DNA of 63,419 bases from a virus (lineage: Duplodnaviria > Heunggongvirae > Uroviricota > Caudoviricetes): the IMG/VR virus record IMGVR_UViG_2579778871_000002; one strand, given 5' to 3'. The position numbers and the translations under genes were made by a program. Below the pieces are notes generated by a model that was not told the DNA's origin, did no database searches, and worked only from the letters and a program-made list of their open reading frames with translations. Numbering within the stretch: position 1 is the stretch's first letter; every line of letters begins with the position of its first letter. Positions 30,805 to 32,361 of the stretch are shown piece by piece.

Positions 30805-30822
30805 TAAATTTATTAGTGTAAT
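30795..30822. promoter_or_regulatory. C1 operator pair overlapping dmt stop codon
   Basis: ATTGCTCTAATAAATTT (17/17) overlapped by inverted partial copy TTTATTAGTG. Confidence 0.65.
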
Positions 30823-30985
30823 ATCGCCTCAATGAATCGTGATTTATAGAGCGATTTAGCTGTTAGCCGCGACAGGCGCGGCGGTAAGCATGGCTGGGCC
30901 TAGTCCTCCCAGACAAACCACCGAGTTGCCAGGTTGACCATGCGCCTAAGTGGCAACGCCGAAGTGCGTTACGAGCTTCCAGTTT

Positions 30986-31011
30986 GCCCATCTTCGGGTG
31001 GGCGTTTTTTT
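30986..31011 (+). terminator. rho-independent terminator
   Basis: GCCCATCTTCGGGTGGGC hairpin followed by TTTTTTT. Confidence 0.6.
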
Positions 31012-31476
31012 CAGGGTTTTCGTCATGGTTAGCGACTTTGCGGCGGTTTAGAAACTGACCATTAAAGTAAATGCAAACGATGATCTGATGATGGTAGCGG
31101 CCTAAGAAGCCAGACGCCACGGGGTATGAGTCGTCCCCCGTCAAAAAATCGACCGCAGAGTGTCCCCGTCTGTGTATTAGGGAACGGGGAGGCACAACAG
31201 GTAAGGGCGCTGGTGTGATTAACCAGATGAACGAGAAGGGGCCATCTGTTGGTCAGCGTCCTTTCCTGTTGCGTCTTCTTTTCAGCGTAACAGCGGTGCT
31301 TAACAGCACTTTGGGTACAGTTCCACGAATTTACGGGTATATCCCGTCATGCTGAAAGCGCTAATCACGCTGGAAGCCAGGGTTATGCATCCCCTGTTAC
31401 CGAATTGCAGCCAGGGCGCGGTGCGCCGAAAAGCATACGGAGGTGGAAGCCCTCGCCGGAGACGTACCCGGCAAGT

Positions 31477-31552
31477 GATGGTGTAGCTCAGCGGTTAGAG
31501 CGGTTGACTGTTAATCAACGGGTCGATGGTTCAAATCCATCCACCATCGCCA
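31477..31552 (+). tRNA. tRNA-Asn (anticodon GTT)
   Basis: 76 nt; acceptor GATGGTG/CACCATC, D-arm GCTC-AGCGGTTA-GAGC, anticodon loop CTGTTAA, T-arm GATGG-TTCAAAT-CCATC, encoded CCA. Confidence 0.85.
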
Positions 31553-31554
31553 AT

Positions 31555-31630
31555 GCCGGTTTAGCTCAGTTGGTAGAGCGCCTGCCTTGTAAGCAGGATG
31601 TCAGCGGTTCGAGTCCGTTAATCGGCACCA
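31555..31630 (+). tRNA. tRNA-Thr (anticodon TGT)
   Basis: 76 nt; acceptor GCCGGTT/AATCGGC, anticodon stem-loop CCTGC-CTTGTAA-GCAGG, T-loop TTCGAGT, encoded CCA. Confidence 0.85.
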
Positions 31631-31632
31631 GC

Positions 31633-31712
31633 ACAACAGGTAAGGGTATTTTGCGACGTCGGAGATCGCCGAGCTTGGCAGAGGGTTCGAATCCCTACGA
31701 AGTACCCTTACC
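31633..31712 (+). ncRNA. tRNA-like element / degenerate tRNA
   Basis: GGTAAGGGTA ... GGGTTCGAATCCC ... TACCCTTACC: T-arm-like GGG-TTCGAAT-CCC and 9-10 bp terminal pairing, but no canonical cloverleaf could be folded by eye. Confidence 0.25.
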
Positions 31713-32361
31713 GTTGTGAGGAAGTGCAGCTCTTTGAAGCAACCAGAAGATAAGCATCTGGCTTCACAACATAAACCGCAGGAACGACCAATAAACGGTA
31801 GTCCGTATGGAGAACACCCCGTTGAGGAAGAGGCCTGGCCGGAACCGTAACCGGCACTACAACGTTGAGAACACTGGCGTAACGGGGTCATATCCCAATC
31901 TACGAATAAATGTTGCGTTGCAGCGTGACAACCAGTGTTCTCAACATTGTGGTGAATGCACAGGCTGATGTGCCGCAACTACAGTAGTGCGCGCTTTGCG
32001 GGGCTTGCTACAACCCTGTGTCGGAGTTCAGCACCGACCATCACAGTTTGATTCACTGGCATGAGCATAACGCTGAAATAAGTCCAGTCTGGTGCGGTCT
32101 GATCACCCGCCGTTAGCTCCACGAAACGGAGCACGTAACAGGTAAGAGCATTCTCCTGTAACGGGTTCATATCCCAATCTACAGGTCCACCAGGAATGCT
32201 CTTTCCGTTGCGGTGAATGCGGCTAAGCGCACGCGGGGAAATGGTTATATCTGTCCATTATTTCTCCTTGTTTCCCCGTCCACGGTGGATAACCAGCCAA
32301 AGGACACCGGGAGGCACCCGGCACCGCAGCTTTTTTATTCGTTAAATAATGGAGTGAGAGG

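Follow-up and report, generated by a model that had tools for sequence, protein, structure and literature searches.

A predicted array of non-coding RNA modules, including a tmRNA-like element, in the ban operon leader of a P1-like phage

The DNA analyzed here is a viral stretch of 63,419 nucleotides (IMG/VR record IMGVR_UViG_2579778871_000002; hereafter the window) from a P1-like phage, and our subject is its segment 30805-32360, which is 99% identical to positions 68677-70199 of P1 (NC_005856). The P1 counterpart of this segment comes after dmt and ahead of the ban genes, and its annotation comprises the Pban promoters, a bivalent C1 operator, a "dicF-like region" and the transfer RNA (tRNA) genes trnA (Asn) and trnT (Thr), with plp and upl on the opposite strand. 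In the window, the segment is followed by a 78-aa open reading frame (ORF), a 275-aa ORF, a tRNA with a CAU anticodon, and ban, an arrangement from which we take it to be the leader of the ban operon, untranslated and under C1 repression. The original prediction for this segment, drawn from the letters of the DNA without database searches, was of a structured non-coding region with repeated units around the two tRNA genes, possibly encoding stable small RNAs or tRNA-derived relics. Scans with ARAGORN and Rfam recovered tRNA-Asn and tRNA-Thr as it had stated, together with sub-threshold matches to STnc100 and to the clan of transfer-messenger RNA (tmRNA; Rfam CL00001).

From its sequence, the leader is best described as a head-to-tail array of non-coding RNA modules, all on the + strand and separated by four long hairpins (Table 1). 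The modules follow in the order dicF-like segment with a terminator, tmRNA-like RNA, hairpin A, spacer X, tRNA-Asn and tRNA-Thr, hairpin B, the Y modules, hairpin D, small RNA (sRNA) E1, module Z, hairpin C and sRNA E2. Sensitive BLAST searches with the two halves of the leader revealed separate sub-segments conserved at 70-94% identity, almost always in unannotated DNA, in phages that otherwise have nothing in common with P1. Segment 31015-31195 matched Ackermannviridae (phiEa2809, phiMAM1, Magnus), N4-like Gamaleyavirus (Bp4, ECBP1, KP8) and Drexlerviridae (CS01) as well as many Klebsiella and Salmonella phages, whereas 31632-31718 matched Enterobacter phage BUCT554 and 32193-32328 Cronobacter phage phiES15. 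In the lytic phages the 31015-31195 element is located in gene-free tracts, and it adjoins tRNA genes in Bp4 and phiEa2809. Several of the modules are kept in unrelated phages with compensatory base changes, which bears out the claim that the region is structured.

The element at 31015-31195, located upstream of the tRNA genes and overlooked in the original prediction, exhibits the messenger features of a tmRNA. Its 5' domain has the form GUUUUCG...GCGACUUUGCGG..UUUAGAAACUGACC..UAAAU (31016-31072) and is followed at 31073-31105 by the frame GCA AAC GAT GAT CTG ATG ATG GTA GCG GCC TAA, which encodes ANDDLMMVAA*; the stretch from the in-frame TAG upstream to the GCA codon contains no in-frame ATG, GTG or TTG. 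An alignment of P1, Erwinia phage phiEa2809, E. coli phage Bp4 and Cronobacter phage CS01 revealed an invariant ...UUUAGAAAC.(G/A)ACC.......UAAAU and then GCA AAC GAY ... GCN UAA, and the encoded peptides (ANDDLMMVAA in P1, ANDNEFKVAA in phiEa2809, ANDDVVLMAA in Bp4 and ANDDLMLMAA in CS01) clearly resemble, as judged from sequence, the SsrA tag of E. coli (ANDENYALAA) in type. The features that together characterize a tmRNA tag are all present: a frame opening at a resume codon with no start codon, a short peptide with a hydrophobic and Ala-Ala end, and a stop codon. Additionally, a weak covariance-model match to the tmRNA clan was observed over the tag region in every homologue tested, and the consensus AUAAAUGC(A/C)AACGA of the permuted and beta-proteobacterial tmRNAs of Rfam agrees with the phage sequence.

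A pattern scan of IMG/VR extended this comparison to at least 120 loci, giving a tag set of 129 listed instances that includes the window and GenBank loci. All 129 have exactly 10 codons followed by a stop. At the nucleotide level they fall into 30 alleles, which specify 18 peptides that fit the pattern AN[DES][DEN]xx[LMK][AMVI][AV][A, once P], and premature stops are absent from the tag frame of all 30 alleles, against 29/30 and 24/30 alleles interrupted in the other two frames. Several peptides are each encoded by several synonymous alleles (ANDDVVLMAA by seven, ANDDLMLMAA by five), and in two alleles the stop has changed from TAA to TAG. The 5' domain and the first three tag codons are nearly invariant at the nucleotide level. 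Ordinary translation of the tag region was considered and rejected, given that there is no in-frame start and that the ATG-initiated ORFs of the +1 frame vary between 5 and 9 codons. One exact match to a 29-nt pattern, in a contig of a Chitinophagaceae metagenome-assembled genome (L130, 4088-4116), had no covariance-model match and was set aside as most likely due to chance.

Downstream of the tag start, column-pair analysis combined with inspection yielded three structural elements that adjoin one another. The first is a hairpin resembling helix 5, whose loop contains the stop codon (outer pairs 31092-95/31116-19, inner pairs 31099-101/31109-11); in the covariation set the UAA is enclosed by helix 1, which is 100% paired with 4/4 pairs changed on both sides, and by helix 2. 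The second, pseudoknot a, is of the H type and in P1 comprises stem 1 at 31120-24/31136-40 and stem 2 at 31130-33/31150-53. Its stem 1, GUGAGG/CCUCAU, is replaced elsewhere by GCAAGG/CCUUGU, CGGGG/CCCCG or UCAGG/CCUGA, and its stem 2, in which the loop CCGA pairs with UCGG, by CCAG/CUGG, CCAA/UUGG or GUCG/CGAC. The third, pseudoknot b, has its P1 stems at 31155-59/31169-73 and 31163-67/31186-90; stem 1, CGCACU/GGUGUG, occurs in at least nine compensated variants, whereas stem 2 is GCCC/GGGC and reaches up to 8 bp as GGCGGGAG/CUCCCGCC, accompanied by a conserved loop 3, (G)AUUAAUAA. The heuristic extraction of helices was noisy and only cleanly parsed variants were used; RNAalifold on the raw MAFFT alignment gave little.

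A covariance model of the tag and pseudoknot part (R1) found exactly one copy per locus, the match in the window spanning 31064-31192 (102 bits, E 7e-23). Among 74 distinct sequences, and for the whole structure with both pseudoknots counted, 88.1% of the alignment cells were paired compared with 76.0% in shuffles (0/500 as high), while partners slid out of register gave at most 44%, and 18/27 pairs were changed on both sides compared with 10.9 in column shuffles (0/500). These figures are conservative, because 18 rows of the P1/Bp4 type are shifted by one or two columns within the pseudoknot stems and were counted as unpaired there. The two H-type pseudoknots after the tag are thus supported by covariation. 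Neither pseudoknot 1 (PK1) nor a closing helix 2 could be established from the alignment of homologues, because the 5' domain hardly varies. A closing helix 2 formed by CUUUGCGG/CCGCAGAG was dropped when its 3' strand proved to be part of the covarying stem 1 of pseudoknot b. Two further ideas were discarded: pseudoknot b as an acceptor mimic or aminoacylation site like that of turnip yellow mosaic virus, for which there is neither a G3.U70 pair nor a conserved CCA, and an RNAduplex comparison of the module with E. coli tmRNA, which was uninterpretable and was not used.

At the start of the module, the invariant 5' GUUUUCG occupies the place that an acceptor strand would take. On the 3' side of pseudoknot b the sequence is heterogeneous (GCACAACA, ACCCACCA, GUUAAUCA and others), with ACCA in a few copies, AACA in most, and no T loop in the module; since the identical GCACAACA also comes after the CCA of tRNA-Thr, this sequence is assigned to the leader of the next hairpin. 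A regular-expression search, covering part of each genome, for a T arm and CCA beside a complement of GUUUUCG returned ordinary tRNAs only. In several prophages the module is preceded by its own sigma-70 promoter, TTGACA-17-TAGATT (10/12), which ends about 13 nt upstream of GUUUUCG, and this spacing suggests that the RNA would start at or just upstream of that motif.

The tmRNA-like module is widespread in E. coli, being found in 660 of 5,426 complete genomes (~12%), with 582 places on P1-like plasmids and 140 on chromosomes; RefSeq annotates nothing or a "hypothetical protein" over it in those 660 genomes. Homologues with 10-codon AN..A tags are carried by lambdoid prophages and by N4-like, Vi1-like and T1-like phages. 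Occurrence among species-representative genomes is only sporadic (Pseudocitrobacter, Pantoea, Escherichia sp.), which fits carriage by phages of Enterobacterales. The leader of the late operon in lambdoid prophages follows the same grammar, a hairpin preceding the tmRNA-like module, a further hairpin preceding an STnc100-like module, and so forth; by eye, the ORF upstream of that array was read as Q, the terminator just after this ORF as tR' and the ORF downstream as a holin gene. In other prophages a promoter-driven operon between structural genes has the order tmRNA-like RNA, hairpin, STnc100-like module, tRNA-Arg and a tRNA with a CAU anticodon. Prophage-like contigs of ~47 kb (L036, 1132-1700; L042, L044, L060, L081) have the tmRNA-like RNA at the head of such a stand-alone operon of non-coding RNAs and tRNAs, and in L036 the operon lies between structural-gene ORFs in the manner of a moron, an insert that a phage genome carries and that is transcribed independently.

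The repeats that had first drawn attention to the leader proved to be real and non-random. AACAGGTAAGRG occurs exactly three times in the 63-kb window, always on the + strand (31196, 31635, 32137), with 0.28 copies expected by chance and none of 100 shuffles reaching three; the original prediction had the repeat right and misplaced the second and third copies by 1-2 nt, which is immaterial. Also present are the 25-nt unit GTAACGGG(G/T)TCATATCCCAATCTAC at 31879-31903 and 32158-32182 (96% identity), a second direct repeat of 24 nt, TG.TCT..C..TTG.GGTGAATGC, at 31936-31959 and 32197-32220, and the perfect 14-bp inverted repeat, which extends to 23 nt at 91% complementarity (31855-31877 / 31932-31954); these direct repeats and the inverted repeat lie at the places given in the original prediction. 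What had escaped notice is their structural meaning: each AACAGGTAAGRG copy is the 5' strand of a long hairpin (the second spanning 31635-31716; Table 1 for the first and third), the 14-bp inverted repeat forms the stem of another, fourth member of this hairpin family, and GGTGAATGC is the conserved start of sRNAs resembling STnc100 and PasD.

By their sequences the four hairpins belong to one family, whose conserved stems GGUAAGRGC.../...GCYCUUUCC yield both the AACAGGTAAGRG repeat and the 14-bp inverted repeat. The family consensus is RCACAACA, then GGUAAGRGCAUUG ... CAGUGCUCUUUCC, then GUUG or AGUU, with stems of 18-23 bp, including the CAAC/GUUG flanks, and one conserved mismatch; the 3' strands (...GCYCUUUCC) were taken from inverted-repeat pairs for hairpins B and C and by inspection for A. 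Compared with shuffles, all four fold strongly, with z = -4.47 for A (minimum free energy, MFE, -39.3), -4.73 for B, -6.12 for D (MFE -49.2) and -5.33 for C. Hairpin A (AACAGGUAAGGGCG ... CGUCCUUUCCUGUU) has a stem of 14 bp in which position 3 is a U.U. Hairpin B has the leader GCACAACA, the stem GGUAAGGGUAUUU/AAGUACCCUUACC (31639-51/31700-12) and the trailer GUUG, and encloses an inner hairpin GCGACGUCGGAGAUCGC and a T-arm-like hairpin AGGGUUCGAAUCCCU with the T-arm motif GGUUCGAAUCC; its inner sequence recurs with a compensated outer stem in two lambdoid prophage loci (L011, L030) and in Enterobacter phage BUCT554. Hairpin D has a stem of ~22 bp that includes the perfect 14-bp GUUGAGAACACUGG/CCAGUGUUCUCAAC (31862-31875 / 31933-31946), GUUGAGAACACUGG being a variant of the family stem GGUAAGAGCAUUG. 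The inner unit of hairpin C (AACAGGUAAGAGCAUUC ... GAAUGCUCUUUCCGUUG), GUAACGGGUUCAUAUCCCAAUCUAC, is a paralogue of the hairpin D inner unit GUAACGGGGUCAUAUCCCAAUCUAC.

Around the homologous modules we collected ~160 distinct hairpin units, mostly of 50-100 nt, in which the stems vary in a compensatory manner (GGGCGCUG/CAGCGUCC, GGGUAUUU/AAGUACCC, GGGAGCUG/CAGUUUCC, AUGACACUU/GAGUGUCAU) between fixed neighbours, namely RCACAACA before the units and, after them, either GUUGUGGU, the STnc100-like start, or AGUUUUCG, the tmRNA-like start. Because the compensation falls within each unit, the units are self-contained hairpins, and the alternative that flanking half-repeats pair across a module is refuted by the same changes. 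As a separate observation, hairpin A contains the inner hairpin CUGG-UGUGAUUAA-CCAG at 31210-31226, and UGUGAUUAA is conserved in pseudoknot b of most non-P1 homologues, the pseudoknot b of P1 itself having UGUGUAUUAG instead; its presence in hairpin A might reflect either the remnant of a second module or a common protein-binding loop.

The position of these hairpins between RNA modules suggests, by analogy, that they are endonucleolytic processing signals. The enzyme would be a double-strand-specific or a tRNA-type endonuclease, with RNase III most likely and RNase P or RNase E possible; RNase III is preferred because the length and imperfection of the hairpins fit it best, the stems being imperfect and 18-23 bp long where ~20 bp would be expected of an RNase III site. 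RNase III processing hairpins are familiar from the T7 early transcript and the rRNA operons, and the stable RNAs C and D are co-transcribed with the T4 tRNA cluster. The hairpins described here are similarly long, imperfect and placed between the functional units of what would be one polycistronic transcript, and, as with RNAs C and D, small RNAs (here read from sequence) are embedded in a phage tRNA operon. Unlike in those systems, the P1-type stems have a sequence conserved across many phage families, and the hairpins enclose variable, sometimes tRNA-like inserts and double as recombination junctions.

The competing idea, that the hairpins are instead tRNA-like punctuation cut by RNase P and by RNase Z or E, as in mitochondrial transcripts and permuted tmRNA genes, strikes us as unlikely. 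It would account for stems that begin with GG, end with CC and comprise 12-14 bp like an acceptor plus T minihelix, for the T arm in hairpin B and its homologues, and for the common leader GCACAACA after the tRNA-Thr CCA; it could also draw on the odd ARAGORN calls at the equivalent places in Bp4. However, the CAAC/GUUG flanks lengthen the helix past position +1, which should hinder RNase P, and a T-loop motif was detected in just 16 of 162 units. Similarly, none of the four hairpins in the window was recognized as a tRNA by ARAGORN or by the Rfam model RF00005, which found only three true tRNAs. The suggestion of tRNA-derived relics therefore fits the hairpins only loosely: the T arm of one hairpin and the intact tRNA-Tyr and tRNA-Ser genes located nearby in relatives speak for it, whereas the failure of every hairpin to score as a tRNA does not. 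The Bp4 calls (L004) comprise an "Ala-CGC" without G3.U70 at 1310-1381, ~120 nt upstream of the tmRNA-like module, and a 79-nt "Cys-ACA" at 1673-1751, directly after it; judging by sequence, these aberrant tRNAs occupy the positions of punctuation hairpins.

The remaining part of the original proposal, stable small RNAs, is judged likely. The modules E1 and E2 both begin with GGUGAAUGC, and their 5' ends correspond to the two GGTGAATGC copies. E2 matched the Rfam family STnc100 (RF02076) over model positions 31-147 of 206 with 38.7 bits (E 3.4e-6), under the gathering score of 47. It has the closing stem UGCGGUG/CACCGCA and the terminal hairpin CCGGG-AGGCA-CCCGG followed by a U run (GCUUUUUUAUU), and its fold (z = -2.83) was not equalled in 200 shuffles. 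STnc100 and PasD are related Hfq-associated prophage sRNAs encoded near Q antiterminator genes (bioRxiv 10.64898/2026.05.13.724894). E2 shares with them the closing stem and the CCGGGAGGCACCCGG hairpin, and its relatives adjoin a Q antiterminator gene or sit in the late leaders of lambdoid prophages; it differs in being located in an early operon of P1 instead of a lambdoid late operon, and in its score of 38.7 against 47. The PasA/PasC sRNAs (84 nt, with terminators) were considered and are not this element. E1 starts with UUGUGGUGAAUGCACAGGCUGAUGUGC and ends with GUCGGAGUUCAGCACCGACCAUCACA, ends that match by eye a module located after punctuation hairpins in lambdoid prophages (L011, L030, L049) and in P7, and its architecture bears a weak resemblance to STnc100/PasD.

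The other parts of the array (Table 1) are less distinctive. The first module is closed by the sole intrinsic terminator that a terminator scan found in the region, a stem at 30985-31004 with a T run to 31011, and its segment 30867-30961 has ~76% identity to DNA that carries no annotation in lambdoid phages such as Stx2c and cdtI. The label "dicF-like" comes from the P1 record only, with no Rfam match to DicF (RF00039) at E<=10 in 30600-33700; like the DicF sRNA of the Qin prophage, the P1 segment is short, ends in an intrinsic terminator and has related sequence in lambdoid phages, and unlike it, it lacks a DicF match even at that threshold. Three further segments look like additional non-coding RNA modules by their conservation: Y1 (31701-31776), with a closing stem GUUGUGA...UCACAAC and 79-94% identity to Sashavirus, P22-like phages and Klebsiella phage-plasmids; Y2 (31773-31879), with 87% identity to Citrobacter phage phiNP; and 32054-32152, which covers the region of module Z and the start of hairpin C and is ~84% identical to unannotated Klebsiella and Cronobacter prophage DNA.

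Table 1. Features predicted in and around the leader of the ban operon (positions in the window)
Feature	Position	Strand	Basis
Pban promoters P2ban and P1ban, overlapping the bivalent C1 operator Oban/Op72	30779..30824	+	mapped from P1 NC_005856 annotation
Inverted repeat ATATTGCTCTAATAAA/TTTATTAGTGTAATAT in the Oban region	30793-30824	+	inverted-repeat scan
First leader module	30866..31012	+	P1 "dicF-like region" at window ~30919-31020; terminator scan
tmRNA-like RNA	31016..31195 (~180 nt)	+	homologues, covariation, tag alleles, sub-threshold tmRNA-clan matches
Punctuation hairpin A	31196..31271	+	repeats; fold compared with shuffles
Spacer or module X, hairpin A to tRNA-Asn	31272..31476	+	kept only in P1-like phages (among the matches listed)
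tRNA-Asn(GUU)	31477-31552	+	ARAGORN; Rfam tRNA 74.5 bits
tRNA-Thr(UGU)	31555-31630	+	ARAGORN; Rfam tRNA 72.9 bits
Punctuation hairpin B, with tRNA-like features	31631..31716	+	inverted-repeat scan; fold compared with shuffles
Modules Y1 and Y2	31713..31854	+	BLAST; sequence
Punctuation hairpin D	31855..31954	+	inverted and direct repeats; fold compared with shuffles
sRNA-like module E1	31946..32062	+	sequence comparison with lambdoid prophages and P7
Module Z, ending in hairpin GCUCC-ACGAAAC-GGAGC	32063..32136	+	BLAST
Punctuation hairpin C	32137..32210	+	repeats; fold compared with shuffles
sRNA module E2, STnc100/PasD-like	32207..32336	+	Rfam RF02076; fold compared with shuffles

Comparison with close relatives revealed that modules are exchanged at the hairpins. 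Phage SJ46 (L128) is without exactly 31904-32157, the endpoints of the deletion falling in the two 25-nt copies; in P7 (L002) and D6 (L127), 31970-32197 has given way to a different module of the STnc100-like kind together with a complete tRNA-Ser(UGA) and a further hairpin; and Ro157c2 (L126) has an extra tRNA-Tyr between tRNA-Asn and tRNA-Thr. This mosaic suggests that the hairpin repeats also serve as recombination junctions for the exchange and deletion of modules. Immediately after the E2 sRNA, window positions 32362-33406 differ from P1 70233-70929, where tciA/tciB/tciC stand between the leader and the CAU-anticodon tRNA; in their place the window has the 78-aa ORF, which is hydrophobic, and the 275-aa ORF, which starts with MKKTLISAAIILGSLCLTGC, in what is apparently a further module swap. 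Elsewhere in the window, 15142-15316 (+) matches the Rfam model of sok antitoxin RNA strongly (114.9 bits), indicating a toxin-antitoxin locus of the hok/sok type in this P1-like element, and both the C4 antisense RNA and the a1/b1 sites that it targets (immI region; 11484-11536 and 11605-11690, +) reached the Rfam gathering scores, confirming immunity circuitry of the P1 type.

Together, these observations led us to favor, at a probability of roughly 60%, the reading that the leader is the polycistronic non-coding RNA array of the ban operon, with processing hairpins and a relative of the messenger part of tmRNA that, in the version we prefer, engages host SmpB and stalled ribosomes. The conservation, the modular architecture, the helices and the constraint on the reading frame were observed directly in the computations. 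On this basis we infer the following course of events. Once C1 repression is lifted, transcription from Pban (~30830) would proceed through the array, reading through the terminator at 30985-31011, and cleavage at the hairpins would free the flanking RNAs in the manner of the RNase III sites of the T7 early transcript. The products would be a tmRNA-like RNA of ~180 nt, two tRNAs and two or more sRNAs. The first of these may represent a tmRNA relative reduced to its messenger part, comprising the sequence ahead of the resume codon, the tag, the helix-5 stop and two pseudoknots. It could engage the host machinery of SmpB and stalled ribosomes so that the tag is decoded, with the acceptor function supplied from another source, and decoding would change or boost the tagging of stalled products during lytic growth. 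For this last part, in which SmpB would load the RNA onto stalled ribosomes, the tag would be decoded there and the acceptor function would come from elsewhere, we consider the odds about even; decoding is favored because the peptide is constrained in its length, its Ala or Val-Ala end, its synonymous alleles and the retention of its stop. Such an end is of the kind found in SsrA-tag variants such as LAA, LVA and AAV.

A number of results weigh against this reading. The tRNA-like domain (TLD) that defines a tmRNA, with its 7-bp acceptor stem carrying G3.U70, its T arm and its CCA, was not found in the module, and neither for the window nor for any of 27 related loci did ARAGORN report a tmRNA. 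The Rfam matches stay far under their gathering scores, at best 24-26 bits for tmRNA_permuted (47), up to 17.7 for beta_tmRNA (84) and 11.7 for RF00023 (47). The 5' domain is too conserved for covariation, and its fold could not be derived; for the invariant GUUUUCG, no consistent complement or covariation was found in the 3' tail, the variable 5' loop, the downstream spacers or hairpin B. Nor did the searched parts of the genomes reveal a second element, as an acceptor piece, common to the loci of P1, Bp4 (N4-like), phiEa2809 (Vi1-like) and CS01 (T1-like), and we know of no route to tag decoding without aminoacylation. The terminator at 30985-31011, strong and only ~180 nt downstream of Pban, lies directly ahead of the module and makes its expression in P1 dependent on read-through; because of its upstream position, the rest of the ban operon likewise needs read-through or antitermination. 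E1, for its part, had no Rfam match, and its fold was no better than that of shuffles (z = 0.01), which leaves its assignment weak. RNase III was chosen by analogy, and the entire case is one of comparative sequence analysis.

The principal alternative, which we regard as unlikely, is that the tmRNA-like RNA is a decoy that, as a mimic of the messenger domain, sequesters SmpB, ribosomal protein S1, RNase R or stalled ribosomes and thereby inhibits or retunes host trans-translation during infection. The lack of a detectable tRNA-like domain or CCA would be expected of such an RNA, the near invariance of the 5' domain and of the first three codons in nucleotides suggests a binding constraint at the RNA level, and a phage precedent exists in the TLD-only tmRNA fragment of mycobacteriophage DS6A, which is reported to inhibit tmRNA (PMC4131195, PMC11915505). 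A decoy, however, needs neither an exact frame of 10 codons, nor a synonymously kept Ala or Val-Ala C-terminus, nor a stop that is retained when TAA becomes TAG. Moreover, several phages (lambda-immP22 hybrids, Mu) depend on trans-translation, in view of which its inhibition is not obviously useful to a phage.

It is less probable still that the region is debris, that is, decayed tRNA genes and a captured, truncated ssrA fragment shuffled at repeats that would be recombination scars or DNA boundaries, with no present function. The mosaic of the P1-like relatives, whose breakpoints lie at the repeats (SJ46, P7 and D6), would be explained, as would a tmRNA-like element that has lost half of a tmRNA and a hairpin B with a T-arm-like motif. 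But compensatory changes maintain six helices of the tmRNA-like RNA as well as the hairpin stems, the tag frame is intact in every listed instance, and the module is kept in unrelated families of lytic and temperate phages, sometimes with its own promoter; debris is improbable because pseudogenes would not exhibit such helices, such a frame or such retention across families. Coding by the minus strand as annotated in P1, where plp (a putative lipoprotein of 125 aa) and upl (63 aa) are intact as they are in the window and the repeats would be incidental, is very improbable, given that plp has a TTG start, overlaps tRNA-Thr on the opposite strand and is variously interrupted by an in-frame stop and a 162-nt insertion (Ro157c2), deprived of its first 25 codons (SJ46) or split (P7), that upl is absent from P7, D6 and SJ46, and that the homologous segments of other phages are unannotated and differ by indels of 1-2 nt. 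The same holds for a 110-aa ORF opposite the tmRNA-like module (orf110): across P7, D6, SJ46 and Ro157c2 all three frames are interrupted, truncated or absent, in agreement with the claim that the region is non-coding, and plp and upl are probably spurious.

Measured against E. coli tmRNA, the module has a GCA resume codon without a start codon in an upstream context of UAAAU, in which the U at -5 and the A at -4 are the counterparts of U85 and A86 in E. coli. Its tag has the form ANDD....AA in 10 codons compared with ANDENYALAA, a hairpin resembling helix 5 holds the stop codon in its loop, pseudoknots come after the tag, and its 5' GCGAC..UUUGCG resembles UCGACGGGAUUUGCG (GCGAC-UUUGCGG compared with UCGAC-GGGAUUUGCG). 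It differs in the lack of a detectable acceptor stem, G3.U70, T arm, CCA and closing helix 2, in having two post-tag pseudoknots instead of three and no recognizable PK1, and in its size of ~180 nt, half that of E. coli tmRNA; it differs from the two-piece (permuted) tmRNAs in that no separate acceptor piece was found. Among phages, surveys of RefSeq viruses reported ssrA in mycobacteriophages (Bxz1 etc.) and Bacillus phage G only, in addition to the TLD-only form of DS6A, and the current tmRNA database requires a TLD bearing CCA (PMC4131195, PMC11915505). The P1 element shares with these the carriage of a tmRNA relative by a phage, and DS6A is a precedent for a phage with just half of the molecule; unlike them, it is neither full length nor the tRNA-like half, as in DS6A, but the messenger half, and it occurs in phages of Enterobacterales, for which those surveys reported none (PMC4131195, PMC11915505). 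Our literature searches found no earlier description of the tmRNA-like element. The P1 locus and its tRNAs have long been known and the STnc100-like piece adds a member to an established family, whereas the tmRNA-like element and the common punctuation hairpins appear to be undescribed.

A broader and more speculative proposition, which we hold only tentatively, is that enteric phages carry a "messenger-only" tmRNA relative whose tag is decoded without a TLD of its own, for example by docking onto host SmpB and tmRNA or by a new route of template loading, and which would rewrite the degradation tag on incomplete proteins during infection while traveling in modular cassettes of non-coding RNA bounded by a common processing and recombination hairpin. 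Since a tmRNA is by definition a tRNA part joined to an mRNA part, a conserved and widespread phage RNA that has the mRNA part only, together with a clearly selected tag frame, would represent either a new way of supplying stalled ribosomes with a template or a new class of interference by viruses with the rescue of ribosomes. The element sits in the well-studied P1, in DNA annotated for twenty years as the doubtful plp and upl and a "dicF-like region". The common punctuation hairpins suggest how phages may build up and trade cassettes of tRNAs and sRNAs, among them the STnc100/PasD RNAs of pathogenic E. coli, and they offer simple sequence handles for finding more such RNAs.

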